This document shows, in pieces, positions 4,483 through 29,351 of a stretch of DNA of 32,000 nt. The stretch spans positions 270,001-302,000 of the forward strand of contig AP027133.1 in the NCBI GenBank assembly GCA_027925325.1, read 5' to 3'. The DNA is from Candidatus Saccharimonadota bacterium (GTDB lineage Bacteria; Bacillota_I; Bacilli_A; Mycoplasmatales; Hepatoplasmataceae). Positions within the stretch are counted from its first letter, which is position 1. Every line of letters starts with the position of its first letter. A program made the position numbers and the translations under genes. The notes below the pieces were generated by a model. The model did not search any database, was not told where the DNA came from, and saw only the letters and a program-made list of their open reading frames with translations.

Positions 4483-5568
4483 ATGCAGCGTTTGTATATA
4501 AAAACAGTTACTATTCATTATCTTGGACCATGAATAGATAATCATTTTCGATTTAAAAAAAATAATCTTATTTTTGGTATTAATAATAATGCAGGAGGAT
4601 TAGATGTAATTGAGATTATCAAGTTAATTAAAGATATTCGTAAAAAACATCGAGTGGAAAAAGAGTTTTTTCATGAGAATTTAATAAATAATCCTAATGC
4701 TAATTTTGATAAATGTTTATTAAAAATAACATATTTTAATTCTAAAAAGGATACTTATATTAAAGTAACAAAAGATGGTTTTATTAATTATAAATATAGT
4801 AAAAATTTAAATTCCTTAAATAAAATTAAAATTTCTTGTTTTGAAACAAAAGAAGATTTAGAAGAAATTCTAAATGCTCTTAATTCCAAAAAAGATCAGA
4901 TAAATTATTTAAAAAATCGTATTGTTATTTTTCTTAAGATAGAAAATATTATTTCTGAATCTAAAATTAAAAAAATTTTAGATTTTTCTTATAAATATTC
5001 CGGACAAACTTTTTTTTCGACAATTTCACCAAAAATAATTGTCCATGCTGTCAATAATTTTGATACAAAATATCTTGATGTATTTTATATGGTAAATCAT
5101 TTTGAAAAAAATAAAAGACCAGATTTATTACAACAACTAACCGAATATACAGGTAAAAAAATTAATAAAAAAATTCTTTTTGTAGAAGGGATTAGTGATC
5201 GATTGATTATTGAATCGATTGCCAAAAAGAATCGAATTAAAGATTTAATCATAATTGATGTTGGCGGGATTGCAAATATTAATTTCGATGCAATTGCAAA
5301 ACTTAATCATTTTCTTACCGCAAAAGCGATTATCGATCATGATAATGAGATTGATCGTAAATCAAATCGTTTAATTCATGTATTAACAAGAACGGCAATT
5401 GAGTGATATTTAGATCAAAATATCTTACGGAAATATGCTTTAAATGATTTTAGAATGTCTTCTCATAATAAAATTTTGATGGCTGAGAATTTTAAAAATA
5501 CTTATCTTAAAAGTCAAAATTATCGTAAGTTAGAAAAAGAATTTTTAAATCTATATAATTCATTCTAA
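4483..5568 (+). CDS. Toprim-domain protein with a degenerate N-terminal ABC/OLD-like P-loop region (361 aa)
   Basis: ATG 4483 is in frame with ORF 4654..5406 (offset 171) and reads through TGA at 5404 to TAA 5566. The N-terminus LYIKTVTIHYLGPWIDNHFRFKKNNLIFGINNNAGGLDVI follows the strand-strand-P-loop pattern of RecF/SMC/OLD ATPases, but GKS/T is replaced by GGL. The C-terminal part has KILFVEGISDRLII (Glu codon 5185..5187) and AIIDHDNE (5335..5343), which matches Toprim E...DxD as in OLD/DUF4435-type nucleases. Confidence 0.55.
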
Positions 5569-7612: not shown

Positions 7613-7634
7613 TTATTTTTTTAAAAAAAATAAG

Positions 7635-7676
7635 TATAATAATGTTGAATTACTTGATGGAATTAAATGGTATTAA
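7635..7676 (+). promoter_or_regulatory. Candidate promoter elements for the tracrRNA (TATAAT 7635..7640; TGgTATTAA 7668..7676)
   Basis: A consensus -10 hexamer and a weaker extended -10-like element lie just upstream of the anti-repeat region. There is no experimental TSS, and in DNA this AT-rich such matches are common. Confidence 0.25.
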
Positions 7677-7852
7677 ATAATTCATGAATACCAACAAACA
7701 CAACTCAACTTAAATGATTCATGAATACCAACTGGTCAAGATAATGGTTTAGTAACATTTCTATGTGTTACAGATATCTAAGGGTACTCAGGTAACCCTA
7801 AATGTAATCTTCCTGAAATAGAAAACACCTTTTAAAGAGGTGTTTTCTTTTA
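7670..7852 (+). ncRNA. tracrRNA: tracrRNA (5' end uncertain); full anti-repeat 7709..7742, partial upstream anti-repeat copy 7670..7695
   Basis: 7709..7742 can pair with 34 of the 36 nt of the minus-strand CRISPR repeat (26 Watson-Crick pairs plus 8 G.U). Downstream there are three hairpins: 7752..7771 (GTAACA/TGTTAC), 7779..7800 (TAAGGGTAC/GTAACCCTA with a bulge), and terminator 7822..7846 followed by a T-run. This is the canonical layout of anti-repeat, hairpins and terminator. Confidence 0.8.
7822..7852. terminator. Bidirectional intrinsic terminator shared by tracrRNA (+) and csn2 (-)
   Basis: 9-bp stem AAAACACCT (7822..7830) / AGGTGTTTT (7838..7846) with a 7-nt loop. It is followed by TTTTCTTTT on the plus strand and by a T-rich run on the minus strand. 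It overlaps the csn2 stop codon (7850..7852). Confidence 0.7.
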
Positions 7853-8935
7853 TTTAATTTGTTTTAATATCTCGTTTTGATATTCTTGTTTTGAATTTAA
7901 TTTTATTTCGTTCAATCGAAAAAATAATTCATCACGTAATCTTTCATTTTCACTTTTAAAATTAAGTGGACCCTTATAGATATTTTCAAAGATATCAAAA
8001 TCTAATAAAATATAAGACAATTTATTTTTAATAAAATCACTTGCCATTTTTTTATAATCATCTTTTTCTGCTACTAATTTTAATTGCTTTATTTTAGTAT
8101 TAAATTGATCAATTGATTTAATATCCTCTTTTATAAAAATATTATCCTTAAGAAAATAATTTTTAAGCAAAAAGGAATTATCAATATAAAAATTATTTAA
8201 TTGATTTTTATTTAAATATAATATTTCTTCAATATTTAAATCAAGATAACGAATTATGAGTGGATTTCTTGTCGTAAGGATAATTAAATTATTTTTTCTT
8301 AAGGAAATTAAAAGTGAGCAAAATTCTTGTAAAGATCTGCCATTAAGAATAGAATCAATACAATCAAAAACAAAAATTTTGTTTTTGGTATCGGTATCGA
8401 TCAATAATTTTAAATAAAGCATCAATCTTTCGGAACGAGAAAGATTTTTTTCACTTATTTCATCTTCTTCTTGGTTATAAATTGCTAATTTAAAAAGAAT
8501 ACTAATTAGATCAAAATCGTTTTTAAAATTAAAATTTGGTTCGATGTAATATTCGTTAACTTTACAATTTATTAAATTTTTAATTCTATCTAAAATTAAA
8601 ACAATATCTTTTTCTAATCTTAATTTTTCTGTTAAGTCAATATTTTTTTCCTCTAAAAAATCAATTAGATGATCAATTATAAATTTATATAGATAAGATT
8701 TTTTTTGCAAATTTAATTCTTTTTTTAATTCTCATTCTTCATTTAAAATTAAATATGACCTATTATCCTCATATAAAAGATTAGAAAATAGTTGATGGGT
8801 TTTTCTTTTTAGCAAATACTCAAAATTATTAATAAAAGTTGTTTTTCCACTATTATTTTCGCCATAGATTAAAACAATATTATGTTCTGTTTTAATCTTA
8901 AAATTATTATAAAATTGATTTAAAATTATTTCCAT
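7850..8935 (-). CDS. csn2: Csn2-family protein, long form with intact P-loop (361 aa)
   Basis: It is the last gene of the cas1-cas2 operon (start 8935, 1 nt after the cas2 stop). ORFs 8732..8935 and 7850..8710 share one frame (offset 225), joined through TGA 8732. The region ERLMLYLKLLIDTDTKNKIFVFDCIDSILNGRSLQEFCSLLISLRKNNLIILTTRNP parallels the conserved core that I recall from S. pyogenes Csn2 (..[42 protein letters not shown]..). Walker A is GENNSGKTT. Confidence 0.6.
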
Positions 8936-8936
8936 A

Positions 8937-9245
8937 TTATAAAATTAAAAAGTCTTCATCATTTGTATAGGATTCTTGTAAACTTTTTCTTCCTTTTAAA
9001 ATTTCTATTTCATTGTATTGTTTATTTGTAACAATAATTATTCTTATATCGCCCTTTTGTGGCAAAATTTCTTTAATTTTTAACTTAGTTCGATTTACTC
9101 AATCATAGTTGTAGCAATGTTTCATATAGACAGATTCTTGAATCATAATAAAGCCAAGCTTTGTGATATCATTACGAAATTTATTCATCGCCTTTTGATC
9201 TACTTTTGTTATCGTTGGTAGATCATAAAAAAGTAAAATATTCAT
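8937..9245 (-). CDS. cas2: CRISPR-associated endoribonuclease Cas2 (102 aa)
   Basis: Translation MNILLFYDLPTITKVDQKAMNKFRNDITKLGFIMIQESVYMKH...GDIRIIIVTNKQY matches the type II-A Cas2 pattern (..ILMFDMPT...YRKFRKFL..GFIMHQFSVY..). ATG 9245 lies 4 nt after the cas1 TAG. There is one internal TGA (Trp). TAA stop at 8937..8939. Confidence 0.85.
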
Positions 9246-9249
9246 CTGT

Positions 9250-10209
9250 CTAAAACGAGATTCCTTGTTCTTCATTTTCGAGTTTTTTTCTTATATTTAA
9301 AGGGAGATGTAATTCTGGTAAGATTAAATCATCTCTTTTTCCTTCTAAATAAGAGATAATCGATTTTACCATCATATCAATTGCATTTTTAATTTTTGTT
9401 ATCTTTCCGGCAATTATTACATCGAGTGATAAAACCTTTATTAATTTGATTCTTAAGATTAATTCTAATTTATCATCCTGAATTAATTGATTATTATCAT
9501 GGACAATCCAATCGATAAAAGGTCTAAATGGTTCGATTAAATCATATGTAAGATTAAAATAATTCAATTGATCTTTATGATTAAAACCAAGGGTAGGATT
9601 TAAACCAAATTTTATAATTGCACTTGAGATCCGACTAGCTAAGATTTTATAACCATAATTTAAAGCACCATTAATTGCATTTGGTCCTTTTCTTGCAAAT
9701 TCACCGTATATTCCAAATAATTTTTGAAAATAAAGTTTTGCAGCAACAGCTTCCATGTTTTGCGTATCACCTTGATTTACTCTTTTTAAATAAATCTTCA
9801 TTTTTTCAAGATCATCATCAGAGCAATTAATTTTTGTTTTTAAATCAACGAGCAAATTTCTTTGATTTGCTATTTTTTGAATAATAATTTGCTTTCAAAT
9901 CCTTTGTTTATCCCTAAGGGATAAATTTAATTGTTTGTTAAAATTTTTTAAAGGATTATGATGTCCTGAAAGATTAAGGATAATTGCAGAAGGATCATGA
10001 TAATTATTATCAATAATAATAGGAATATTATGTTTAGTGCATTCAATAATTGTTGGAATTGAGATATTAGTTCTTGTATTATCAATTATTATAATATCTA
10101 TATCTTGCAAGAACAATTTAATTTTTTCATCTCTTCCTTCAATTATTAATGAGTTATTTTTGATCTTAAGATTTTGATCACTTTCTATATATACTGTTCT
10201 TCAACTCAT
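9250..10209 (-). CDS. cas1: CRISPR-associated endonuclease Cas1, type II (319 aa)
   Basis: The N-terminus MSWRTVYIESDQNLKIKNNSLII is typical of type II Cas1 (M.GWRTV..). Other motifs: EAVAAKLYFQKLFG, NGALNYGY, GFNHKDQLNYFNLTYDLIEPFRPFIDW. ORFs 9895..10116 and 9250..9855 and the ATG at 10209 are all in one frame (offsets 93 and 354), joined through TGA codons. Confidence 0.9.
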
Positions 10210-10251
10210 ATAAAAATAGAGTATCATAAAATTTTTTAATTTTATTATTAT

Positions 10252-10260
10252 TGCTATAAT
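10252..10260 (+). promoter_or_regulatory. Extended -10 promoter element TGcTATAAT
   Basis: Exact match to TGnTATAAT, about 43 nt upstream of a GGAGG Shine-Dalgarno (10303..10307) and the micro-ORF at 10313. Confidence 0.3.
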
Positions 10261-10312
10261 TTTTATAGAAGAAGAAAAAATAAAAAGTAATTTGTCACTT
10301 TTGGAGGGAATT

Positions 10313-10375
10313 ATGAGTAATTTAAAACCAAGATATACAAAAACAGGTGGGGAATTATTAAGTTGATTTAAATAG
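10313..10375 (+). CDS. Possible 20-aa micro-ORF (MSNLKPRYTKTGGELLSWFK)
   Basis: GGAGG sits 5 nt upstream of the ATG, with an extended -10 further upstream and a TAG stop at 10373..10375. It lies in the cas1/GH13 junction and is convergent with the GH13 gene. I recognise no homology. It could be a rearrangement relic or a non-coding or antisense start. Confidence 0.2.
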
Positions 10376-10377
10376 GA

Positions 10378-14087
<3,710 letters not shown>

Positions 14088-14269
14088 TTACTGTTTAAAA
14101 TATTCCTCTTTAGTTTAATTTTATTAATAAATATTTTTTGAAATTAATTTTTTTAAATTTAGATATACAAATAATGATTGTAATTTTTTTTATTTCATAA
14201 AAATTAAGAAAAATTATAATTTTATGATAATTTATTAATTTTAGAGATAAATTTAAATTAAAAAATAAG

Positions 14270-14275
14270 TATAAT
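14270..14275 (+). promoter_or_regulatory. Candidate -10 box (TATAAT) for the glpFKO operon
   Basis: Consensus hexamer 28 nt upstream of the glpF ATG, with AAAGGAG (14286..14292) between them as the SD. Confidence 0.3.
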
Positions 14276-14302
14276 ATGTTTTGAAAAAGGAGTGATTAAA
14301 AA

Positions 14303-15028
14303 ATGGATTTAAGTTTAGGAGGAATATTCCTTTCAGAAATGATCGGGACTTTTCTTTTAATTTTGATAGGATGTGGTGTTAACGCTAGTGTTAATCTTAA
14401 AAAAACACATTCATATAATTCTGGATGAATTGTAATATCTTTCGGTTGAGGAATGGGGGTTATGATCGGCGCAGCCGCTGCCTATTATTCAGGTGGACAT
14501 CTAAACCCTGCTGTTACTTTAGCGATGTGAACTGCGGATTTCATTAATACAAAAGAAGCAATGATTTATTTCTGTGGAGAAATTGTCGGAGCATTTTTAG
14601 GAGCTTTAACAGTTGCCTTTTTGTTTTGAAATCATTTTAAAGAAACAAAAGATCCAAAAGCAATTGCAGGAACATTTCATACTTCTCCAGCAATTAAAAA
14701 ATGATATAGAAATTTTGGAGCAGAATTTTTTGCAACATCTGTTTTAGTATTGCCATTATTGACAATTACTGAAGTAGATATTTCATGAATTTATGGACCA
14801 TTGTTTGCCGGATTAATAGTTTTGGGAATCGGTCTTGCATTGGGTGGACTTACTGGATATGCAATAAATCCAGCAAGAGATTTAATGCCAAGATTAGTTC
14901 ATCAAATGATGAGAATACCTAACAAAGGGACAAGCGATTGAGGATATGTATGAGTGCCTATTTTAGGTCCTTTATTTGGTTCAATGCTTGCAACAGGTGT
15001 TTTTGAATTAATGATTTATGCATATTAG
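14303..15028 (+). CDS. glpF: Glycerol uptake facilitator (MIP/aquaglyceroporin), 241 aa
   Basis: [26 protein letters not shown]..., first NPA box [14 protein letters not shown], second box INPARDL. Several TGA Trp codons explain why it is missing from the ORF track. TAG stop at 15026. Confidence 0.9.
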
Positions 15029-15178
15029 GGTATTTATAAATTTTTAATTTTAAATTTAATAACATATTTTTACGAGATTTTTTATTTTTAATTTTTTTAT
15101 AAAAGTTTTATAAAATTTAAAAATAAAATATTTTCGTTTAAAAAATTAGAAAAAAATAAGATAGGAAATTATTCATTA

Positions 15179-16669
15179 ATGGAAAAAAAATATATTTTAG
15201 CACTAGATTCAGGAACAACTTCAACTCGAGCTGTAATTCTTGATCAAAAAGCAAAAGTTATCGCAATTGGTCAAAATGAATTTACACAATACTTTCCAAA
15301 ACCAGGATGAGTAGAACATGATGCAAATGAGATTTATGCAAATCAAATTGCAGTTGTGATTCAGGCGATTCAAAAGGCCCATTTAAACACAAATCATATT
15401 AGCGGAATTGGAATTACAAATCAAAGAGAAACGGTTGTAATATGAGATAAAAAAACAGGAATGCCTGTTCATAATGCGATTGTTTGACAAGATAAAAGAA
15501 CATCAGATTATTGTGAAAAATTACAAAAAGATCCCAAAATAGTTAAAATGATCAAAGATAAAACAGGACTTGTGTTAGATCCTTATTTTTCTGGTACAAA
15601 AATAAAATGATTATTAGATAACATAAAAGGTTTAAGAGAAAAAGCAAATAAAGGTGAAGTATTAGCAGGAACAATCGATACTTGACTTACCTGAAAATTA
15701 ACAAATGGGAAATCATTTTATACAGATTATACAAATGCCTCAAGAACTTTACTTTTTAATATCGTTAATTTAAAATGAGATCAAGAATTATTAAAATTAT
15801 TTGATATTCCAGAAATTATTTTACCGGAAGTTAAAAACTCTTCTGATGATTTTGGTAAAACAGAAATCGATGCGATAAAAGGAATTCCAATTTATTCTTT
15901 AATTGGAGATCAACAATCTTCTCTTTTTGGTCATCGTAGTAAGATCGGTGAATTAAAAGGAACTTATGGGACTGGAGCCTTTTTGATGCTTAATATCGGT
16001 GATAAAATTATCCATTCAAAAAATGGATTACTTACAACGATTGCATTAGGATTAAATGGAAAAGTTACTTATGCTCTTGAAGGGTCAATTTATATCGCTG
16101 GTAATGCTTTAAAATGAATCAAAGATGAATTACATTTAATTCAAGAATATGGACAGATTGATTATTATTTAAAAGATGATTATGATTCAAAAGGAGTCAC
16201 TGTCGTTCCTTATTTTGTCGGTGTTGGTTCACCATATTGAAATACAAGAGCACGAGGAATGATTACAGGAATTACAAGAGGAGTAAATCGTGGTGATATC
16301 ATAAGAGCAACAGCTGCTTCGATTGCTTTTCAAACTTATGATATTTACAAAGCTTTTCAAGAAGATTATCAGAAAAAAATAATCAAAATGTCAATCGATG
16401 GTGGAGTTTCAAAAACAGAAAAGCTAATGCAATTACAGACAGATATTTTAGATGCAAGACTTTATAATCCTGAATCAACAGAAATTACAGCATTAGGAGC
16501 AGCTTTTTTAGCAGGATTAAAAGTAGGAATCTGAAAAAATCAGCAAGAACTTGATCGTCTACTTAAATTTAAAAAGATTTACAAACCGATGGGAGAACCA
16601 TCTCATCGTTCTGAGATGATTAAAAATTGAAAAGATTCTGTAAAATTAGCACTTGAATGAAATAAATAA
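15179..16669 (+). CDS. glpK: Glycerol kinase, 496 aa
   Basis: [74 protein letters not shown] 15179 is in frame with ORF 16259..16534 (offset 1080). TAA stop at 16667. Confidence 0.95.
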
Positions 16670-16677
16670 GGAAAATT

Positions 16678-17802
16678 ATGGATAAAATAAGAACATATGA
16701 TGTTGTTATTATCGGTGGGGGAGTAATCGGATTAACAATCGCAAAAGAATTTTTAGAAAATGGTGTTAAAAATATCTGTTTACTTGAAAAAAATAGTGAA
16801 GTTATGCTTGAAACTTCATCACATAATAGTGGAGTTATTCATAGCGGGTTCGATGCAACTCCCGGAACCCTTAAAGCGAAATTTAATGTTTTAGGTCGTC
16901 ATATATTTGAAAAGAAGTATTTAAAAGCAGATGCAAAATTTCATTGAGAAAAAGCAGATTCATATATCTTAGCTTTTACAAAAGATGAAATTGAAGAATT
17001 AGATAAACTATATGATCAGGGGATTAAAAATGGTTTAGAAAAAGGTAGTATGAAAATTATTGAGCATGATGAACTTTTAAAGATAAATCCTTATCTTAAT
17101 AAAAGAATCATAAAAGCTTTACAGATTACTACTTCTAAGGTTATCGATGCTCATCAATTTGGTAATTTTATTTTTGCACAAGCAAAAGAATTAGGTTTAA
17201 ATTATCACCTTAATTTTAAAGTAAATGAAATTACAAAAAATAAGAATCATTGAGTAATCAAAAGTGATAATAACCATATCTTAAATGCAAACTTTATCAT
17301 CAATGCAAGTGGAGTAAGAGCAGAGGAAATCGCAAGATTTGTCGAAAAAAATCCTTTATTTAAGATCAAAACAAGAAGAGGTCAATATCTTGTTTTAGAT
17401 CAAAGCGAGAATAAGTTTACACCAACAGGAGTTTTCTTTCTTACTCCATCTAAACATGGAAAAGGGGTAATAGTTGCATCGCTTTTAGATGGAAGAGTTT
17501 TAGTTGGTCCAAATGCAGAAGATAATGTCCCTAAGGACAATATCCATTTGGTAACGGTAGAAGGTTTAAAATATGTTCGCAAGATTGGTAGAAAGATTAA
17601 TTCGAAGATAAATCTTGATCGTGTTGTTTCGGTATTTGCGGGTTCAAGATCGATCAACGAATTAACAAATGACTATTATATTGATAATAGTAAAGAGGTT
17701 GATAATTTCTTTCATGTAGCAGGAATTCAATCACCTGGATTATCAAGCTCACCCGCAATCGCAGAATATGTATTTAAAAGATATAAAGAACTAAAAAAAT
17801 AG
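16678..17802 (+). CDS. glpO: FAD-dependent glycerol-3-phosphate oxidase/dehydrogenase, short Mollicutes type, 374 aa
   Basis: N-terminal dinucleotide fold YDVVIIGGGVIGLTIAKEF. ORFs 16678, 17050 and 17548 are all in one frame (offsets 372 and 870), joined through TGA. C-terminal motif HVAGIQSPGLSSSPAIAEYV. It is the last gene after glpF-glpK. Confidence 0.85.
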
Positions 17803-17813
17803 ATTTAATATAA

Positions 17814-17844
17814 AAAAATATAGGGCATTTAACCCTATATTTTT
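17814..17844. terminator. Bidirectional intrinsic terminator between convergent glpO and cas9
   Basis: Perfect 12-bp stem AAAAATATAGGG (17814..17825) / CCCTATATTTTT (17833..17844) with the 7-nt loop CATTTAA. There are A/T runs on both sides. Confidence 0.75.
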
Positions 17845-17861
17845 ATTTTACAAAAATATAG

Positions 17862-20800
17862 CTATTCTTGTAATTTTCCTAATCTTGTTATGTTAACAAG
17901 TTTTAATTCTTGTGCCTTTGCAACACCAATTCTTGGCCAGTTTCCAATTATTTTTTCATATTTTGAATCTGATTGTTGTTTTAAATTTGCATTTCCTGCT
18001 AATATAACTTTTCCTAATCCACCTAATCCACGATAAACATACACAATTTCACTATCAGGTAATTTAAATTGTGCATTCCGAAATAATACAAGATTTATTT
18101 TTTGTTTATTCTTTGCATATTCGATCATTTTATTTCGATAAATCGGAATTAATTTATTTTTGTCATCATATTGATATCCAATATATTTAGAAATATCTCA
18201 ATAATTTCCTGCTTTATCTTTAATAAATGAAGATTTTAATTGCTTTGTTTTAGGATCTAATGCTTCTTTTTTTCCAGATGGATTTTGTTCCGCAAGAATT
18301 TGCCCCCTAACTCTTTTATCAATTTTGTAAGATACATAAGGATATTGTTCAATTTTTTTATTGTTTAATTTGGCTCATTCACTAGCCTCAATTGTATTTA
18401 AAAATCCCGGTACCTTATTTTTAATTTTTTCTTTTTTTAATTCATTTGTATTAATATTAAGAATTTCTTTTATAGATTCTTCTTCCTTTCATTTTAATTT
18501 AACAGGAATTAAATTATTTATTTTTTGCGGTAAGTTTTCAATAAGTGGGCTTATTAAATTAAAAATAAATTTATCAGCTTTAAAATCTATCTTTTCTAAT
18601 TTTTGGTTATTTTTAATTCTTTGATCAATTTCATTAATAATGTAAGAGAAAATATCATCTATCTTTTCTTTTAAAAGATCTGCTCTTGTAAAGTTAACGA
18701 TATTAAAATTTGTCATTACTTGATCAATTGCCTTTTTTTGCTTAAATAATTCTTCTTTTACATTAAATTTATCAAGTTTATTTTTGTAAAATTGATTTAC
18801 TAAATAATTATAATATCTAATAATTCTTATGCTTAATTGATAAATTTCAATATGTTCCTTTGAAATCATATTTGAAAGAATAATTGCATCAACGGCATGA
18901 TGAAAAGGAGAAATATCACGTAGCTTTTTATCATCTCCTCATAAACTACCAATTAAAGAATTAGTTGGATTTAATCACATTCTTCTAAAATAAGATGTGA
19001 TTCCTCCCTGTATCTGTAATATTTTTGGAGTTAAAATATTTTTTTTCTTACTGATTTTGGTAAATTCTAATTTAAAATAATCGCTAATATATTTTGTAAT
19101 ATATCTCGTGTCATTTATATCTCTGGTTTCAAAACCCATCTCAGTTGATCTATTTATTGTATCTAAAAATAGATATGATTGCTTTATTTGATTTTTATCA
19201 AATGATTTTTCTATTTTATTTTTTCAATTACTTATAATCTTTGTTGATAAATTTTGACTTTTAAAGTAATCTAAAGGTGTTTTATTATTTTTTAAAGCAT
19301 TGTTTTTTGTTGATGTTACTATTTTATTATTTTTGCTATCATCATTTACTAAAGAATAAGGAGCTATATGATCTATTTGATAATTATTATTTATATCTAA
19401 TATAAATTCTTTTAAATAAATTTTCTCTTTAAGATTTATATCATAGATATCAATCGCATATTGTTCTTTTTTACCTTGTTGATCTATTTGCTGTTCTTTT
19501 CAAATTAGATATTTATTAATATTTTTATTAGAGGGATCTAAATTGTTTTTTTTAAGTTCGATTGCTGCTTCTTCTCTTCTTTTTTGATTTTTATCTTGAT
19601 TATTTCTAATATTTTTTCTGATCTTTTTTTCTGCATAAAGATCTTTAGCAACTTCTATTATTACATTATCAAAATTATTGTATTTTTTAAAAAGATCACG
19701 GACAACCAATCTAATCTGATTAATTGAACGAAAAACAACAGAATTTTTTTGCATATCTTTATCTCTAATCGGTTCAAATTCCTTTGCATTCAAATTAAGT
19801 TTATTGATTTTTTCCTGATCTTTTTTTGCATTTAATCTGTATTGATATTCAGAAATAAGTTCACCTGTTTCTAATTGATTTTTAAGCGCTGATAAAATAA
19901 ATTCACTAGAAGTTGATAGGGTTTTATTTCCTCTTTTTATTCAATCATTATTATTTTTGATTCATTCATAACCTTTTTTATCATCATTAAAAAAATTATC
20001 AATTTCAATTAATTTATTTTTTAATTTTTGTGGTGTTTTATATTTAAATAAAATTTCAGCAATTTTATTTATTTTGCTTTCTTTGATTGAATTTAAAAAA
20101 TTTAAATTAATGTTTAGATTTTTTAAAATAAATTCCTTATTTTCTTTTTTCTTTGCAAAATTATGTAAAAAAAGTCCACTATTTGCAAAACTAATTCCTT
20201 TTAAAATAGGAGGAAGTTGTAATTTATTTTTTTCAAAAATATCATTAATTATTTTTTTATCAAATTTAAAATTTGTAAAATAATTATTAAAAATTTCTTT
20301 TGTGAGAATTTTTATATTTTCATTATCAATATTTTTTTCTTTTTTTAATTTAGAAAATATTTTTGAAGATTCATTTAATATAAAAGAAATATCATTTTCA
20401 ATTGAAAAACAAGATACTCTTTTTTTATTTGGAAAGAATTGACAATATCCTACATTTTCGATAAAGGGTTTATAGTAAAACTGTTTTGAATCTTTTTTGA
20501 GAGAATTTTTTCAAAATTCTTTTATTTTTTGATCATTTGGTCCTGGACCATCTTCGAAATCACGTTGTCTAAAAATTATCTTTTTAATATCTTCCTCTAA
20601 ATTTTTTAATTTTGAATTATATTCAATTTGCTTATCTATAATAGCATCAACTTCAATTTCATAATCTTTTCTATTAAACAAAATTTGATGATTAGTGTAA
20701 AATTCATTAATTTTATCTTGCAAAGTTTTTACTTTTTGCTTTAAATTTGTATTTTTATCAAATTTCAAATCATATTTTAAAATTAGATTATTAACATTTG

Positions 20801-21473
20801 TTTCTATTATTTTAGTTTTTGATTTATCTTCATAAATGTATTTTTCAAATTTTTTTAAATTTAATTTTTTACTTCGATAGATAAATTTTTCGGGAGAATT
20901 AAAATTAAAAAGATTACTTTCAGTAATTGCTAAAATAGGATACTTATATTTAGCAATTAACTCATCACTTTTTTTAATACTTTCTCTTGCATCGTTGTTT
21001 TTTTCTTCAAGATCAGGAATAATAAATTTATTACTATATCCTCTTCTTTTTGCAATATTTATTAATGCAATTAATAATTCTAAATTTGTTAACTTTTCTG
21101 TTAAGCCTTTTTTTCTTAAGATTAAAGGATCAAATATATTATTTTTTAAATAATTTTTTCCATTTAATTTTATTTTTTCACTATGATTACTATAATCTTT
21201 TGCAGATAAAAAATTATTACTATAAAATAAATTTTTTAAATCTTTTATTCTTGTTTTTTTTCGTGAATTTAATCTTCTTCCAGATCTAAAAATTCTTCTT
21301 TCAGATGACTTTGTATCTAATGATTTGCTATCTTCAGGTGAATCTCAAAGTCTAACTCCAAAATCTAATATATCAATTTTTTTTGTATTTTTATTATATT
21401 CAGAAATTGCTCATCCAAGTGAGGTAACCCCGATATCTAATGCTAAAAATTTTTTATTTTGTTCTTTATTCAT
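17862..21473 (-). CDS. cas9: Cas9 (type II-A effector nuclease), 1203 aa, all catalytic motifs present
   Basis: RuvC-I MNKEQNKKFLALDIGVTSLGWAI (Asp codon 21435..21437). Arg-rich bridge helix ERRIFRSGRRLNSRKKTRIKDL. RuvC-II NVIIEVAKDL (Glu 19653..19655). HNH NYQIDHIAPYSL...NKIVTSTKNN..K.NKTP (His 19368..19370). RuvC-III SPFHHAVDAII. The ORF-track fragments starting at 20768, 19793, 18869 and 18128 are all in frame with 21473 (offsets 705, 1680, 2604, 3345). TAG stop at 17862. Confidence 0.95.
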
Positions 21474-21567
21474 TTTCTTTTCTTTAAATATTCTGTCTTT
21501 TATAACAAAAAAATTATATAAAATAGTCTTATTATTTTATATAAAAATAAAAAATTTATTGTTAAAT

Positions 21568-21732
21568 TTATTTATATTTTAAAGCAAATATTAATATTAA
21601 TTTTATTAAAATTTGTTGTCAATAAAACATAATAATTAAGTCAAAAATCATACTAATGATTTCAAATGTTATGACACTTATGACAGTAATAATATTAAAT
21701 ATTATAGATATTAAATTGAAAACAAAATCCAT
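21568..21732 (-). CDS. 54-aa very hydrophobic small protein (MDFVFNLISIIFNIITVISVITFEIISMIFDLIIMFYWQQILIKLILIFALKYK)
   Basis: Consensus SD AGGAGG (21739..21744) 6 nt upstream of ATG 21732, and a candidate -10 TATAAT on the minus strand at 21787..21792. One TGA Trp. TAA stop at 21568. It is missing from the ORF track because of its size and the TGA. Confidence 0.45.
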
Positions 21733-21829
21733 ATTTTTCCTCCTTTTTTTAAATAAAACAATATATTATTGAATATCTTTTTAAAAATTATACATTTTGT
21801 TAATAATGCTTTTTTTAAAATCATTTTAT

Positions 21830-22171
21830 TTAAAATAATTCTTTTTTATTGTCATCTTGATTTTCTTTATCTTCATTAATTTTTTTTGTATCTTCTATGC
21901 TGTTTATGTCTTTAGAGTAATGATTTAAATTTTTGGTAAGAAGATTAATATTTCAAAATAAAAATACTCAAGAAGTAAACATAGTTAATCAAGTTGCTCC
22001 TAATACTCCTTTTTGAAATGCTGTTAATCCATCTTCGTAATAATAACTATCTTTTATATCATTCATATAAATAATTATAGATATTGATAAAGTAAGCATA
22101 ATAATACTAAATAGTATTCTAAATATATTACTTTTAAATTCTTTGTTCCATTTTCTACTTTTTTCCATCAT
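21830..22171 (-). CDS. 113-aa small membrane protein with two predicted TM helices and an acidic/Lys-rich tail
   Basis: ORF 21989..22171 continues through three TGA codons to TAA at 21830 (offset 339). Hydrophobic segments are IFRILFSIIMLTLSISIIIYM and GVLGATWLTMFTSWVFLFW. The tail is SIEDTKKINEDKENQDDNKKELF. The SD is weak. Confidence 0.45.
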
Positions 22172-22240
22172 TTAATTTTCTTAATTCTATTTATAATTTT
22201 TAATTTTAATTCAATATTTTTGTAATTTATTTTAATATTC

Positions 22241-25200
22241 TATCTAAACAACTCATGAATACCAACTGACCAAAACAATTCTCAATAGTTCCCATTTTTT
22301 TTAATTGTCCTAAACAACTCATGAATACCAACTGACCAAAACGGATGTATTCAATCAAACAAAGCATGAACAGTCCTAAACAACTCATGAATACCAACTG
22401 ACCAAAACATAATTCTCAAAGATTCTGTTTAAACATTGGTCCTAAACAACTCATGAATACCAACTGACCAAAACGTTGAAGAAGTTCCTATTTGTCTTTC
22501 AAAAGTCCTAAACAACTCATGAATACCAACTGACCAAAACTGATTACAATGGTGGCAAAAATAAAATCATGTCCTAAACAACTCATGAATACCAACTGAC
22601 CAAAACGTTAAAAAAGGTATTGAGAAAAAACATATTGTCCTAAACAACTCATGAATACCAACTGACCAAAACTTACGGAGATTGGCAACGCTATCGCGCA
22701 ATGTCCTAAACAACTCATGAATACCAACTGACCAAAACGGAGATTGAGAAACAGAGCAAATATTAAAAGTCCTAAACAACTCATGAATACCAACTGACCA
22801 AAACAATAAACAAAAATAGCAGTTAAAATAACTGGTCCTAAACAACTCATGAATACCAACTGACCAAAACATTATTTTGATTCATGGATTAACGCAAAAA
22901 GTCCTAAACAACTCATGAATACCAACTGACCAAAACCGAATAAACGAATAAAAAAATTAATCAAACGTCCTAAACAACTCATGAATACCAACTGACCAAA
23001 ACCTTCTGATCTGTTCGCCTCTTTTTAATTTCGTCCTAAACAACTCATGAATACCAACTGACCAAAACTGTGATGGTCTTTATTGGTCAATTTGCCCCGT
23101 CCTAAACAACTCATGAATACCAACTGACCAAAACAAATTATTTTTAGTTAAATTAGTAAAATTAGTCCTAAACAACTCATGAATACCAACTGACCAAAAC
23201 TGCTATTCTAATTCCATCTTTGTGTTCAAAGTCCTAAACAACTCATGAATACCAACTGACCAAAACATACCCATAATCGAGATTATAAATTTCCTCGTCC
23301 TAAACAACTCATGAATACCAACTGACCAAAACTGTATTGCCAAAGACGCCAAACTAATGAATGTCCTAAACAACTCATGAATACCAACTGACCAAAACCT
23401 TGCCCTTTCTCGCCCTTTTTCCTCCTTAGTCCTAAACAACTCATGAATACCAACTGACCAAAACATTTCTCAGTATCATATTCTCAAGTAGGAGGTCCTA
23501 AACAACTCATGAATACCAACTGACCAAAACATCTTTGGCGTTTTTATGATGGTCTCAATTGTCCTAAACAACTCATGAATACCAACTGACCAAAACATCA
23601 ATGTTGATTAAATTCTTTTTTTGTCCGTCCTAAACAACTCATGAATACCAACTGACCAAAACAAAATTGAACAGATCAGAAAGATTAAAGGGGTCCTAAA
23701 CAACTCATGAATACCAACTGACCAAAACAGACGAATTAATTGGCAACGTCGAACAAATGTCCTAAACAACTCATGAATACCAACTGACCAAAACCATTGG
23801 TTGATTGAGGCAAAAAAAACGACGGTCCTAAACAACTCATGAATACCAACTGACCAAAACTCCTATTTCGTCATTATCAAAACTAAAAGTGTCCTAAACA
23901 ACTCATGAATACCAACTGACCAAAACTATAACCTAGAAGGGGATTATTCTTACTATGTCCTAAACAACTCATGAATACCAACTGACCAAAACGAAGGAAG
24001 GAGGAGGATTAGCAGACCTCGAGTCCTAAACAACTCATGAATACCAACTGACCAAAACAATTGGATTAGGAATGTTGTGTTGCTTTCTGTCCTAAACAAC
24101 TCATGAATACCAACTGACCAAAACTTGATCGTAATTTCACTTTTCGTTGTTGTAGTCCTAAACAACTCATGAATACCAACTGACCAAAACACAAATAAAA
24201 ACAATGTGTTATAATGATTAGTCCTAAACAACTCATGAATACCAACTGACCAAAACAATATTGTATATAGAAGCAATATCGTTTTCGTCCTAAACAACTC
24301 ATGAATACCAACTGACCAAAACCAACATCGACGGCGATTATTCTTACGAAATGTCCTAAACAACTCATGAATACCAACTGACCAAAACGTCATTATCAAA
24401 ATTGAATTTATCATTATTGTCCTAAACAACTCATGAATACCAACTGACCAAAACGTCCTCAATCGCTTCGATTAATTCGCTCTCGTCCTAAACAACTCAT
24501 GAATACCAACTGACCAAAACTGTTAATAGATTATCTAATATTTCACTTTTGTCCTAAACAACTCATGAATACCAACTGACCAAAACTACATCAATTGTCT
24601 TAGCAATATATTTTGCGTCCTAAACAACTCATGAATACCAACTGACCAAAACACCATCATTAATTATTTCTTTTGCTTTTTCGTCCTAAACAACTCATGA
24701 ATACCAACTGACCAAAACATGCTCCGTCATATTCTGGTGATTGTTATCGTCCTAAACAACTCATGAATACCAACTGACCAAAACTTATCTATATCGCTTG
24801 TTATCATATGTACAGTCCTAAACAACTCATGAATACCAACTGACCAAAACAAATACAATAATCATAAGAGCAAGAGGGATGTCCTAAACAACTCATGAAT
24901 ACCAACTGACCAAAACCATATTTTTGATTATATAGATTATTTTTATGTCCTAAACAACTCATGAATACCAACTGACCAAAACAATTCTCAATTATCTCCA
25001 ATTTTTTTAATTGTCCTAAACAACTCATGAATACCAACTGACCAAAACAAAAAATGTTAAAATTATTAATAAAAAAAAGTCCTAAACAACTCATGAATAC
25101 CAACTGACCAAAACTAATATCATTTTCTATATTATCAATTAATTGTCCTAAACAACTCATGAATACCAACTGACCAAAACTCCTCCAAAATTGGTGTTTT

Positions 25201-26502
25201 TTTGGACATTGTCCTAAACAACTCATGAATACCAACTGACCAAAACAAGGAAAAATAAAGGAATTTAATCATTACTGTCCTAAACAACTCATGAATACCA
25301 ACTGACCAAAACTTTTATAAAATAATCATTTTCATTTTCAATGTCCTAAACAACTCATGAATACCAACTGACCAAAACTAAATGAAAAAGACTTTGAAGT
25401 AGCAAAATTAGTCCTAAACAACTCATGAATACCAACTGACCAAAACCTTTTTTATTATTAATTAATATTGGGTATTGTCCTAAACAACTCATGAATACCA
25501 ACTGACCAAAACCCAAATCTTCATAATCATTATAATTTAATTGTCCTAAACAACTCATGAATACCAACTGACCAAAACATGCTTTTAAAAGTAATTAAAT
25601 CTCATTCAGTCCTAAACAACTCATGAATACCAACTGACCAAAACCATTTAAAAACATTCATACCGGAGAAAGATGTCCTAAACAACTCATGAATACCAAC
25701 TGACCAAAACTTTACGTTTACGTGTTCTTCGTAGATTAATGTCCTAAACAACTCATGAATACCAACTGACCAAAACCGATAATCTCTATCTTTTCCAATT
25801 AAAAAAGTCCTAAACAACTCATGAATACCAACTGACCAAAACCTATCGAGTTATGACTTGGACCACCAAATCGTCCTAAACAACTCATGAATACCAACTG
25901 ACCAAAACATAATAAAAAGATCCGCTTTGGAAAATGAAGTCCTAAACAACTCATGAATACCAACTGACCAAAACACAAACTAAGGAAACAAAAAATAATA
26001 ATATGTCCTAAACAACTCATGAATACCAACTGACCAAAACGTTATTGTTATCAAATCGATATTATCATTTGTCCTAAACAACTCATGAATACCAACTGAC
26101 CAAAACAGCAATTCTAAACGGACTTACTTTAATGGTGTCCTAAACAACTCATGAATACCAACTGACCAAAACATTATATTTACGTTATTGAAGAACATAA
26201 AAGTCCTAAACAACTCATGAATACCAACTGACCAAAACATATATAAATGTATGTGTGGTTTTTTTAATGTCCTAAACAACTCATGAATACCAACTGACCA
26301 AAACACTATTTCTTATGACCCAGGTGATTTTGAAGTCCTAAACAACTCATGAATACCAACTGACCAAAACACAAGTATTATAGTAGAAATTTTTACAGTA
26401 GTCCTAAACAACTCATGAATACCAACTGACCAAAACACCAGAAGTAAAGCTATCTGATTCTATTTCGTCCTAAACAACTCATGAATACCAACTGACCAAA
26501 AC
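22241..26502 (-). CRISPR. Type II-A CRISPR array: 65 x 36-bp repeats, 64 spacers
   Basis: Plus-strand repeat is GTCCTAAACAACTCATGAATACCAACTGACCAAAAC; transcribed sense is GTTTTGGTCAGTTGGTATTCATGAGTTGTTTAGGAC. I enumerated every unit: 63 spacers are 30 nt and one is 32 nt (25379..25410). I noticed no variation in 64 of the repeats. The leftmost repeat (22241..22276, TATCTAAAC...) has 3 substitutions, marking the trailer end. Orientation is confirmed by tracrRNA complementarity. Confidence 0.98.
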
Positions 26503-26705
26503 ACTACAAAAAAATTATATTAAAAAATTAATTTATATAAGGATTATTTTTGCTTTTTTAAAAATTAGCTTTTTAAAAATATTATTTATTTTGATCTTTT
26601 TTGATATGAAAATTTTAAATTTATTTATTTTTTCTTGTTATAATTCTCTTATTAAATAATAATTATTAGAGTTTTAAATCGGTAAAAGGGACAATTAATT
26701 AAAAG
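26503..26705 (-). promoter_or_regulatory. CRISPR leader (AT-rich), with a candidate minus-strand -10 TATAAT at 26515..26520
   Basis: It abuts the perfect, non-degenerate terminal repeat on the side opposite the degenerate one. The minus-strand TATAAT lies 12 nt upstream of the first repeat. The same interval also holds the plus-strand promoter of the neighbouring gene. Confidence 0.5.
26636..26644 (+). promoter_or_regulatory. Extended -10 promoter TGtTATAAT for CDS 26706
   Basis: Exact TGnTATAAT 62 nt upstream of the GTG start. The same TGTTATAAT element precedes the paralog at 29537..29545. Confidence 0.4.
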
Positions 26706-29351
26706 GTGAAAAAATATAAATTTTTTAATTTTAAAATTTTCAGTGTTTTTACTAGTTTTTTAATTTTCATTAATTTTGCAAATATTAATTTAATTAATAA
26801 TAAATTAAATGATGATAATCTTAATGAAACAAAAATTGGTGATATTATCACACAAGTAAATGGTCAACAAGTTTATGGCGAGGATTTTGATCAAAGTTAT
26901 GAGGCTACTTCAGGAGCTTTAGTTGATGCAGATTTAGATGGATTTGCTGACACTATTTATATGTGAGGCGGAAATAGCTACGGTCAATTAGGAATAAATG
27001 ATCAGGAAAATGAAATAGTTTCTACTCCACAAAAAATAGATACTTTTAAATACGGAACAGGTAGTTTTTATGAACTACAAAGTAGTGGTACACATTCAGG
27101 TGTTATATTTGATTCTGATAATGATAATAAAAGTGATCAATTATATATGTGAGGAGATAATAGTTCACAAGAATTAGCAATTAATCGAAATATTACGGAA
27201 AATATTTCAATTCCTGTTGTTGTTGATTTTGATTGAGGCGGAAATATAATTGAATTAGAATTAGCTTATGGTTATTCTGGTGTTACCGTTGATACCGATG
27301 AAGATGATTATGCTGATACTCTTTATATGTGAGGTAATAATGCTGATGGACAGATCGGAAATGGTGAAAAAGAAAATACAATTTTAGAACCAACTTTAAT
27401 AACACCACAAGATCAAGATAATTGAAATGGTAATATTTTAGATTTTGAAACAGATGGACATCATACCGGTGTAATTATCGATACTGATTATGATGGATAT
27501 GCTGATACCTTATATATGTGAGGTAATAATGATTATGGACAGATCGGAAATGGTGAACGTACTTTTGATGTTACGATTCCAACGATGATTACTCCGCAAG
27601 GTAATGATTGAAATGGTAATTTAATTGATCTTGAATTAGGAGCTTATCATTCAGGTGTTACCGTTGATACTGATGATAGTGGATATGCTGATACCTTATA
27701 TATGTGAGGGGATAATTATTTTGATCAATTAGGAAATTTGCAATCATCAGGTAATACTTTAGTACCGTTAATTTCATATGGCCCTGATCAAACTTGAAAT
27801 GGTGATATCGTTGATTTTTCTCTTTCTGGTTTAAATAGCGGAACAGTAATTGATACTGATAATGACCATCTTGGTGATAAGGCCTATTTTTGAGGTGATA
27901 ATAATTGTGGACAGATTGGTAATAATCAGAAAACGAGCGGAAATGAAAATCAAAGTGAAATTAGTATTCCAACTTCACCATTAGATCAAAATGGAGAAGA
28001 ATTCTTGTGAAATGGGAATATAGTTAATTTAGATTTAGGTGGTAATTCAAGTTCCATATTGATTGATACTAATTATGATGGATATGGTGATGATCTTTAT
28101 TTTTGAGGCGATAATGATTATGGGCAATTGGGAAATAATGAAATTAGTAAAGATCAATTAACACCTGTAGGACAAGATTTTTATTTAGAAAATTTCTTAT
28201 TAGAAGATTATCAATTTTACAATACTAATAATCATCAATTATTAATTAATATTAAATTAAAAGATGAAGATAATATTTTTAATCAAGATAATATTCCTGA
28301 TTTAAAATTAAAAAATCAAAATGATGTTTATACAACAACATATCTTCTTGATAATTCAAATCCGGAAATTGATTCTTATACTTTTTTAATAAATAATACA
28401 AAAACAGGAACATCATATAATTTTGAGAAAATTTTAATAAATGATCAAAATGATGATTTTGATCAAGATAAAATTTTTGCAATTGAAAATGGACAAATCG
28501 TAAGTGATTATAAAATTGTTTCAGCAACAATTCCTGAAGAAAATATTTCACCAACAGAAGTTTTATTAGCTCTTAAAATTGAAAATCAAAAAGATTTTGA
28601 AATTAGTAATTTTACTAACGATCAATTAAAAGTAAGAATAAATTATCAAGATAAAGATCAAGAACAAAATCTTTCGCAGGAAACATTTATAAATGAAAAT
28701 AAAGAAATATTACTTACAGGACTTGAAGTACAAAAAAATTATCAAGTTACAAGTATTGATTATTTTTATGAAGATAGTAATTATAAATATAGTTTAGATA
28801 ATTTAAATTTAAATTTCACAACTAATGCTGTTGCACCTACTTTTTATGATTTAGATGACACTTTTGTAGTAAATGATGTAGAAGAAAATTGGTTTCAATT
28901 CACAGTTGAATTAGATAATGTTATTTTTGATCAAAATGGAAAAGTAAGTAATATTAGTAGTGATATTATTTTCTTATTTGATGATGATAATTCTTATCAA
29001 GCTTATTATGTAGAGAATAGTTGAGAAGAAGATACATCGCAATTAACAACAGCAAATGGATCAATGCAAGGATATGCGACATTTGAGGTCGAGGAATTAT
29101 CAGCAAAAACAAATTATTCTTTTATCGGACTTAGCTTTGATCAAAGTGAAGAGAATATGCAAAGATTTTCACAAGCACAAGTAATTAAAACTGATAAAAA
29201 CGTAAATTATATTTTAATCTTTTTGATAATAATTGGTTCAATACTTATTATTTTATTATTGATCGGGGCGTTTTATTTATTTAGAAAATATTATTGAACA
29301 AAAGAACCTGAAAATTCAGAAGAAGATTTTGAAATTTTAAGTAAAATTTAA
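26706..29351 (+). CDS. Membrane-anchored surface protein: signal-like N-terminus, seven-blade RCC1-like propeller, Ig/FN3-like stalk domains, C-terminal TM anchor (881 aa), paralog B
   Basis: GTG start (an in-frame TAA lies immediately upstream). ORFs 26706, 28128 and 29064 are in one frame (offsets 1422 and 2358). Seven Y-(M/F)-W-G-.-N-..-GQ(L/I)G blades. Stalk motifs NNTKTGTSYNFEKILI and LEVQKNYQVTSIDYFYEDSNYKYSL. TM helix NYILIFLIIIGSILIILLLIGAFYLF. TAA stop at 29349. Confidence 0.85.
26925..28130 (+). repeat. Seven tandem coding repeats (propeller blades, 180-213 nt period) inside CDS 26706..29351
   Basis: The TGA (Trp) of the YMWG/YFWG motif recurs at 26964, 27150, 27330, 27519, 27705, 27891 and 28104. 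Stretches such as GCTGATACCTTATATATGTGAGG recur nearly verbatim. Confidence 0.85.

Follow-up and report, generated by a model that had tools for sequence, protein, structure and literature searches.

Can a CRISPR-Cas system of type II remain one system when its effector genes and its adaptation genes lie far apart on the chromosome? This question is raised by a locus of Candidatus Hepatoplasma scabrum, a gut-dwelling mollicute of isopods (family Hepatoplasmataceae), whose host is the woodlouse Porcellio scaber and whose genome, AP027133.1, is a complete metagenome-assembled genome built from Oxford Nanopore Technologies (ONT) and Illumina reads (PMC10928387). We analysed a stretch of 32,000 nt of this genome (positions 270,001 to 302,000, forward strand), called the window below, in which cas9 and the CRISPR array lie on one side of a block of trehalose (tre) and glp genes, and cas1, cas2, a csn2-like gene and the gene for the trans-activating CRISPR RNA (tracrRNA) lie on the other. 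The split as such is already known, from a sister species in 2014 and for this genome's system in 2024. The reading that we favour, with a probability of about three in four, is that a type II-A system was parted by an old rearrangement, that its components are intact and selected, and that they act in trans from at least three transcription units.

The window has a GC content of 18-36%, the genome one of about 25%. Translation with table 11 fragments the genes, while genetic code 4 (TGA read as Trp) yields each cas gene as a single open reading frame (ORF), with 12 in-frame TGA codons in cas9, two in cas1 and one each in cas2 and the csn2-like gene. Under this code, cas9, the array, cas1, cas2 and the fourth gene, the tracrRNA and the tre/glp block were all recovered at or within a few bases of the positions that a sequence-only reading of this DNA had proposed; the frames are open, as it had claimed, and the RuvC and HNH residues of Cas9 are present. 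Exactly 7652 nt (10210-17861) part cas1 from cas9. The five genes that had been placed in this interval, namely a glycoside hydrolase family 13 (GH13) gene, a phosphotransferase system (PTS) enzyme IIBC (EIIBC) gene, glpF, glpK and glpO, were borne out by family models, which identify the first two as treC and treB (see the table of features below).

The system has the features of type II: a Cas9 with RuvC-like and HNH domains, cas1 and cas2 of type II, a regular array and a tracrRNA. The Cas9 motifs RuvC-I LDIG, HNH DH...N and RuvC-III HHAVDA align to those of NmeCas9, a type II-C protein, which is also the best sequence match among solved structures (1.4e-34, vs about 1e-19 for the II-A protein SaCas9). 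The adaptation genes are tightly packed, with cas1 and cas2 overlapping and the csn2-like gene starting 1 nt past cas2. The probable N-terminus of Cas1, MSWRTVY, aligns with MNWRTVF of H. vulgare.

The subtype depends on the fourth gene, whose family lies directly downstream of cas2 in seven lineages and comprises 28 proteins at E <= 0.001 among 1.84 billion representatives. Two of ten clusters looked up carry a name, "hypothetical protein", from uncultured Mycoplasmataceae or Spiroplasma-like symbionts. Sequence models applied to the protein and its relatives gave weak SMC_N, AAA and ABC ATPase matches, and a profile search of PDB sequences with the family recovered no Csn2, with weak ABC/SMC ATPase matches in its place. 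An AlphaFold2 (AF2) model built from a 22-sequence alignment reached a mean predicted local distance difference test (pLDDT) score of 90.3 (a 4-sequence alignment gave 49 and was unusable). Its top Foldseek match in the PDB was 3zth_A, the large Csn2 protein Stu0660 of Streptococcus thermophilus (E 6e-7, template modelling (TM) scores 0.51/0.53). Other Csn2 chains (9h72_L, 3v7f, 3toc and 9hp8_O) were also matched, interleaved with nucleotide-binding domains of ABC transporters. Because the top structural match is 3ZTH and the gene stands directly behind cas2 in seven lineages, we accept the product, by position and predicted fold, as a Csn2-like adaptation protein. This agrees with a Csn2 assignment based on HHpred that has been published for H. 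scabrum (PMC10928387). By gene content the system falls in type II-A, although the Cas9 sequence is closer to II-C NmeCas9: a predicted Csn2 fold is encoded directly downstream of cas2, and the presence of a fourth adaptation gene departs from II-C. The single operon with a downstream array that is typical of II-A, but does not define it, is lacking here, the array being upstream of cas9.

The csn2-like protein carries a Walker A motif, GENNSGKT, at residues 25-32, a signature-like LSRSE at 165-169, and a Walker B Asp followed by Cys at 187-194. The Walker A motif is kept in 17 of the 22 family members and is degenerate in five distant ones; one member, P0064, also has the DE pair of Walker B. 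Characterised Csn2 proteins, unlike this one, are not known to keep Walker A. The range of motifs would be consistent with Csn2 having arisen from an ABC/SMC-type ATPase, and the family may connect the two. The Walker A motifs in this family may be a new observation.

The array consists of 65 repeats, 64 of them identical, and 64 spacers, all unique (63 of 30 nt, one of 32 nt). The degenerate repeat, at 22241-22276, is at the cas9-proximal end. Repeat polarity, the degenerate terminal repeat, the conservation of the leader and the direction of tracrRNA pairing all place the array in the same orientation as cas9, so that, read from these features, it is upstream of cas9 on the same transcription strand. 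A terminator scan found no terminator-like site in the array-cas9 interval. Small ORFs lie in this gap (window 21474-22240; 9561-10000 of the H. crinochetorum Tokyo2021 locus, L001) and are non-homologous: one of 113 aa with hydrophobic stretches here, and one of 99 aa, apparently soluble, in H. crinochetorum. The 113-aa ORF was considered as an accessory gene and rejected, since the 99-aa ORF at the corresponding position has no BLASTP match to it. It is probably not part of the CRISPR system.

The two halves are tied together by the tracrRNA. The sequence-only reading had counted its gene with the adaptation module, and it was indeed found beside the csn2-like gene; what has to be added is that it carries two tandem anti-repeats instead of one. 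Along the transcript, a TATAAT box is followed by the two anti-repeats (AR1 upstream, AR2 next to the scaffold), a variable hairpin, an invariant GGGTAC.CAGGTAACCC hairpin and a terminator. AR2 departs from a perfect repeat complement mostly at G:U-compatible positions and, judged by its pairing and place, is likely the segment that pairs with the CRISPR RNA (crRNA). Homologues were found in H. crinochetorum, in strain Ps, in H. vulgare and in an H. vulgare relative (L003), with compensatory changes in scaffold and terminator across the five lineages. In H. crinochetorum these affect the variable hairpin and the terminator, and in the relatives generally the terminator stem differs in sequence while the hairpin is retained. 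An Rfam scan of the window gave no match, the tracrRNA included.

The anti-repeat changes together with the repeat. In H. scabrum the repeat reads CTGACC and the anti-repeat CTGGTC, in H. crinochetorum CTAACC and CTAATC. Duplexes with the cognate repeat reach -40 to -47 kcal/mol, vs -11 to -23 kcal/mol with the repeats of two more distant lineage groups; within the group of H. scabrum, H. crinochetorum and strain Ps, the repeats are near-identical and cross-pair about equally well. Since the tracrRNA gene is about 14.5 kb from the nearest array end, co-variation over this distance is direct evidence that both modules form one system.

The tandem arrangement recurs in other lineages. Two anti-repeats in tandem occur in the tracrRNAs of three deep groups, scabrum/crinochetorum/Ps, vulgare and L004/L006 (window 7670-7742; L002 9777-9838, minus strand; L003 3444-3512; L004 9689-9900; L006 9715-9915), whose repeats are strongly diverged from one another. 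In each group both copies pair best with the group's own repeat (-30 to -41 vs -8 to -23 kcal/mol for the upstream copy), and both therefore track the cognate repeat. The tracrRNA of L007 has one anti-repeat. In a full-text literature search, no paper was found that describes anti-repeats in tandem for type II systems, and the arrangement may be a new observation.

How old is the split? H. crinochetorum Tokyo2021 (L001) has the order array, small ORF, cas9, two small ORFs, glpO-glpK-glpF, treB-treC and cas1-cas2. Two unrelated metagenome contigs (L009 and L010) run from glpO to treC-cas1-cas2-csn2-like and on to a P-type ATPase gene, orf361 and dnaE, as in the window. Two related lineages without a CRISPR system are decisive here. 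The genome called "H. crinochetorum Ps" (L011) shares about 81% DNA identity with the window, and its gene order, dnaE-orf361-ATPase-treC-treB-glpFKO-RCC1, is that of the window. At the borders of its tre/glp block (L011 4658-5240 and 12618-13250) stand a tracrRNA gene that seems intact, 217 nt from the 3' end of the csn2-like gene, the common terminator of glpO and cas9, ~194 nt from the 3' end of cas9, a residual array of three repeats and two spacers, and the leader. In the second lineage, L041 (5085-5271 and 12637-12890), what is left of the cas genes amounts to ~24-42 nt from the start of cas1 and 49 nt from the 3' end of cas9; the treC-cas1 spacer is complete, and there is neither a tracrRNA nor a repeat. 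Because H. crinochetorum has the same layout and remnants of the system stand at the block borders in Ps and L041, the split goes back to the common ancestor of all four lineages (H. scabrum, H. crinochetorum and the two CRISPR-less relatives) and is older than their divergence. The deletions that removed the adaptation module in Ps and L041 correspond to window 8068-10308 and 7613-10185; as these are non-nested, the losses were independent. The effector module was lost in both lineages too, and this paired loss argues that the halves depend on each other.

The sequence-only reading had set the split against the contiguous operon of canonical II-A loci. Contiguous cas9-cas1-cas2-csn2-like genes were found in more distant relatives (L004/L005, L006 and L007; Cas9 33-34% identical), and from these loci it follows that the split is derived. 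The array is downstream in L004 and upstream in L007 (array-cas9-cas1-cas2-csn2), and the layout of the window equals that of L007 with additional genes inserted between cas9 and cas1.

The adaptation module has also come apart from cas9 outside the lineages with the tre/glp split. H. vulgare (AP027131.1; L002 9660-16850, L008 1-12300) and a relative have a different split, in which tracrRNA, cas9 and array are followed by sugar genes and then by cas1. The intervening genes, as counted in H. vulgare, encode a ROK kinase, two LacAB/RpiB-family isomerases, a 357-aa putative transporter and a class II aldolase, interspersed with genes for three paralogous membrane proteins of 364-370 aa (62-72% identical) and five paralogous proteins of ~103 aa; one membrane-protein gene stands between cas1 and cas2. 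This different split may likewise be new. In a Spiroplasma endosymbiont of the barnacle Amphibalanus improvisus (CAXIPX010000003.1; L042 6734-9077), a cas1-cas2-csn2-like module stands isolated: the 8 kb on each side of it contain neither a cas9 homologue nor a CRISPR array. The H. vulgare split and this lone module indicate that uncoupling has been recurrent in the group.

The above findings leave the question of whether the parted system is still maintained or is decaying. All four cas frames are intact in both H. scabrum and H. crinochetorum. Between the two species, dN/dS is 0.32 for cas9, 0.25 for cas1, 0.10 for cas2 and 0.25 for the csn2-like gene, and 0.17-0.22 for eight flanking housekeeping and catabolic genes (dS 0.6-1.05 overall), values that are approximate at so high a dS. 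Intact frames and substitution ratios together show that the cas genes have stayed under purifying selection since the split. The spacers tell a similar story: no two of the sets of H. scabrum (64), H. crinochetorum (25) and strain Ps (2) have a spacer in common, and as the split is ancestral, spacers must have turned over after it. On these grounds we infer that the system is functional.

The opposite view, which Leclercq et al. 2014 (PMC3942034) took of H. crinochetorum Av, is that the locus is a decaying, non-functional remnant in which csn2 or co-transcription was lost and rearrangements then met no counter-selection. The operon is indeed broken, two relatives have deleted both modules, the H. 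vulgare locus with its membrane-protein gene between cas1 and cas2 is still more fragmented, and no protospacer match was found in the collections searched; the original authors argued in this sense. Yet the csn2-like gene is present, and four cas genes have remained intact in two species at a dS of about 0.7-1.0, with dN/dS like that of their neighbours, whereas neutral ORFs of 3.6 kb at 25% GC would quickly gain TAA or TAG stops. Homogeneous repeats, an anti-repeat that co-varies with them and wholly different spacer sets in the lineages also speak against decay. We consider the 2014 interpretation less likely than an intact system, and unlikely overall.

Several results do weigh against an intact, working II-A system. 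No curated Csn2 model of Pfam or NCBIfam matched the csn2-like protein or 21 relatives; the claim of the sequence-only reading, a complete II-A system parted into effector and adaptation modules, is otherwise supported. The structural match of the protein is moderate (TM about 0.5) and mixed among ABC ATPases. The high dS limits the precision of the selection estimates, and two related lineages discarded the system, which must therefore be dispensable. The promoters are consensus matches in a 25% GC genome and are no commoner than in shuffled sequence. Finally, the whole array gave chance-level 30-nt matches (E >= 0.1) to INPHARED phages and PLSDB plasmids, and the newest and third-newest spacers had no protospacer in IMG/VR. 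When six arrays were searched for self-targets and common spacers, the matches to other sequences were of 14-27 nt and attributable to chance, and the few near-duplicate spacers that turned up lay each time inside one array; no related arrays were found in JGI metagenomes with the conserved repeat core as query.

If the favoured reading is right, the system could work as follows. An old chromosomal rearrangement would have set the treC-treB / glpF-glpK-glpO block between cas9 and cas1. A promoter in the leader would produce pre-crRNA on the minus strand toward cas9, possibly reading into cas9, which could also be expressed from its own conserved -10 box and would end at the terminator that it has in common with glpO. 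The tracrRNA, made from its own promoter and ended by its own terminator, would pair with the repeats, leading to processing and to Cas9 loading. The cas1-cas2-csn2-like unit lies downstream of treB-treC on the same strand, behind a 150-nt spacer without a terminator, and might be expressed from a weak promoter in this spacer (TATARC) or by read-through from the trehalose operon. Type II-A systems need Cas9 for PAM-specific spacer selection (PAM, protospacer adjacent motif). Acquisition of spacers by a Cas1-Cas2-Csn2 complex would thus be aided in trans by Cas9 made elsewhere.

Transcription of the adaptation unit bears on a bolder variant, in which the split is a stable, selected architecture, read-through couples spacer acquisition to the sugar supply of the isopod gut, and the effector unit and the tracrRNA with its two co-evolving anti-repeats are expressed independently. 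The sequence-only reading had seen no convincing hairpin in the treC-cas1 intergenic region; a terminator scan and folding against shuffled controls confirmed this (no terminator-like site, no significant structure, z = -0.12), and the corresponding spacer of H. crinochetorum likewise has no terminator or structure. The terminator between glpO and cas9, which the same reading had called bidirectional, was recovered by a terminator scan and has T-runs on both strands. We regard this variant as unlikely. If true, Hepatoplasmataceae would hold a natural, fully modular Cas9 system acting in trans with nutrient-linked adaptation, together with a tracrRNA of an unusual kind that could bind two repeats simultaneously.

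As to the origin of the split, a single inversion was rejected on gene-order reasoning, because it cannot give the observed order and orientation. Another possibility, opposed to ordinary recombination or rearrangement, is that a mobile island of catabolic genes, the tre/glp block, was inserted into an intact cas operon by a transposase or integrase since erased. It can be said for this that the block, compact as it is, consists of two divergent catabolic operons, and that in H. vulgare a sugar block of another kind occupies the cas9-cas1 interval. The glpFKO genes occur in unrelated neighbourhoods, between leuS and sepF-ftsZ in H. vulgare and as glpFKO-atp operon-secA in L040, which shows that gene order is fluid in Hepatoplasmataceae. 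But the block borders have no transposase, integrase or tRNA gene (the whole window is free of tRNA genes) and no meaningful flanking direct or inverted repeat, AT-rich chance repeats aside, as the sequence-only reading had already noted for transposases, integrases and repeats; composition varies from gene to gene without any further evident break. The five genes all serve catabolism, and the block does not qualify as a mobile element or genomic island. Insertion of such an island is quite improbable as the cause.

Might the two modules belong to different systems, with cas1-cas2-csn2-tracrRNA serving another array or cas9 in the genome? Their physical separation and the isolated module of the barnacle endosymbiont could be cited for this view, and a second cas operon or array had been named as what would overturn the idea of one system. 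However, in the genome paper a single CRISPR array is listed together with a single set of Cas9, Cas1, Cas2 and Csn2, with accessions five genes apart, and the system is called "likely intact type IIA" (PMC10928387). Since the anti-repeat matches the repeat of this array specifically and follows its species-specific changes, the adaptation module is not that of another system; the joint loss of both modules in Ps and L041 agrees with this, and we hold the two-system view to be very improbable. Misassembly, with cas9 and cas1 really adjacent and the block mis-joined, could be suspected in a metagenome-assembled genome that departs from the canonical contiguous operon, but on the comparative evidence it is effectively refuted by the completeness of the ONT and Illumina assembly, by the same junctions in four other independent assemblies or contigs of related lineages (the like split of H. 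crinochetorum among them), and by cas remnants exactly at both block borders in the CRISPR-less genomes.

The closest known system is that of H. crinochetorum Av, in which cas1-cas2 were found apart from cas9 and the array, with metabolic genes between them (Leclercq et al. 2014, PMC3942034, fig. 3). It has the same split and the same flanking backbone as the window, with Cas proteins 64-84% identical, and differs in having seven intervening genes (Av and Tokyo2021) vs five and 25-35 spacers vs 64. The two extra ORFs of H. crinochetorum lie between cas9 and glpO (L001 13586-14871), encode 69 and 258 aa, the latter without a Pfam match, and are absent from the window. According to the same paper, csn2 is missing, the system is probably inactive and cas9 runs opposite to the array (PMC3942034); the sister species has also been classed as II-C-like with csn2 absent (PMC6882279), a label that fits the closeness of the Cas9 of the window to NmeCas9. 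Our results correct two of these statements, the absence of csn2 and the reversed array. They add that the split is ancestral and selected and that its modules were lost together, where the tracrRNA lies and how it co-varies with the repeat, support for the Csn2 fold, the orientation of the array, and the split of H. vulgare.

Compared with canonical II-A systems (Streptococcus pyogenes; CRISPR1 and CRISPR3 of S. thermophilus), the window has the same cas9, cas1, cas2 and Csn2-fold protein, 36-nt repeats starting with GTTTTG, 30-nt spacers, and a tracrRNA with anti-repeat and terminator. Unlike them, it has an operon broken by 7.65 kb, an array upstream of cas9 and not downstream of csn2, a tracrRNA downstream of csn2 with two anti-repeats, a Csn2-like protein that keeps Walker A, and a Cas9 that, compared with solved structures, is nearer in sequence to NmeCas9 (II-C) than to SaCas9. 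The L004/L006 and L007 loci resemble it in their Cas9 clade (33-34% identity), their csn2-like family and the tracrRNA scaffold motif ...CAAGATAAT..., and L007 also in the order array-cas9-cas1-cas2-csn2; they differ in having no intervening genes and in the place of the tracrRNA, upstream of cas9 in L004/L006 and two genes downstream of csn2 in L007. H. vulgare (AP027131.1) has both a cas9/cas1 split and two tandem anti-repeats, but its locus lies beside rpsL-fusA-tuf and secA-atp, its array is directly downstream of cas9, and its intervening genes are others.

These comparisons indicate that a Cas9 system can persist over long evolutionary times even when large chromosomal distances part its effector genes from its adaptation genes and its tracrRNA from its array, and hence that such a system can be maintained without co-transcription. 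This point was already available from the 2014 H. crinochetorum and 2024 genome papers, and the tandem anti-repeats and the ATP-binding motifs of the Csn2-like proteins could interest CRISPR specialists more than the split.

Features of the window (genetic code 4), in order of position; promoter entries are consensus matches.
Feature	Coordinates	Strand	Evidence or remark
-10 box TATAAT of putative tracrRNA promoter	7636..7641	+	read from sequence; GTATAATAAT in H. crinochetorum
tracrRNA gene (ends approximate), convergent with csn2-like gene	7648..7855	+	anti-repeats, conserved scaffold, terminator
AR1, upstream anti-repeat	7670..7705	+	10 mismatches to repeat complement; duplex -32.7 kcal/mol vs -11.1 +/- 2.5 for shuffles
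AR2, scaffold-proximal anti-repeat	7707..7742	+	duplex with repeat -43.0 kcal/mol vs -11.6 for shuffles
Intrinsic terminator of tracrRNA, abutting csn2-like stop codon	7820..7848	+	13-bp stem, then TTTATTT
csn2-like gene, 361 aa, ABC/SMC-ATPase-like	7850..8935	-	Walker A GENNSGKT
cas2	8937..9275	-	PF09827 2.4e-15; TIGR01573 72.1 bits (cut-off 24.5)
cas1	9250..10227 (probable start 10209; in-frame ATG also at 10227)	-	TIGR03639, type II Cas1 model, 268.5 bits (cut-off 120)
treC-cas1 intergenic region	10210..10377	-	without terminator; weakly conserved TATARC motif
treC, trehalose-6-phosphate hydrolase, GH13	10378..12009	-	NF008183 546 bits, TIGR02403 680 bits, PF00128
treB, trehalose-type PTS EIIBC	12009..14087	-	TIGR01992 404 bits, PF00367, PF02378
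glpF	14303-15028	+	MIP
glpK	15179-16669	+	FGGY_N/C
glpO, type 2 glycerol-3-phosphate oxidase	16678-17802	+	NF033460 444.7 bits
Bidirectional terminator common to glpO and cas9	17814..17844	both	terminator scan; T-runs on both strands; kept in Ps and L041
cas9, 1203 aa	17862..21473	-	TIGR01865 391.7 bits (cut-off 100), PF13395 HNH; 100% identical to annotated H. scabrum Cas9
Conserved TATAAT upstream of cas9	21513..21518	-	
TTGACA-17-TAATAT match upstream of cas9	21622-21594	-	
Small ORF, 113 aa, hydrophobic stretches, in array-cas9 gap	21830..22171	-	no family match
CRISPR array, 65 repeats of 36 nt and 64 spacers	22241..26502	-	repeat GTTTTGGTCAGTTGGTATTCATGAGTTGTTTAGGAC on - strand
Leader, AT-rich	26503..26705	-	adjoins non-degenerate array end; kept beside residual repeats in strain Ps

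Some further features of the window were noted. In the treB product, an internal insertion breaks the EIIC match into two stretches, and a lysine-rich C-terminal tail of ~120 residues lies outside the family models. A 361-aa gene at 4483-5568 (plus strand), between dnaE and the P-type ATPase gene, has a weak match to an OLD-like TOPRIM domain (22.6 bits, below the cut-off of 23.2); it is conserved and present in all four related lineages, the CRISPR-less ones included. The region is flanked by large paralogous proteins, encoded at 3-698 (minus strand), 26706-29351 (plus) and 29572-31566 (plus), with RCC1/WD40_RLD-like repeats and the motif DTLYMWG.N..GQ.G. They have hydrophobic N-terminal stretches, and tandem 186-nt repeats occur at 16-587 and 27274-27720. 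These flanking proteins diverge fast, with 58-61% identity between species vs 75-85% for their neighbours.

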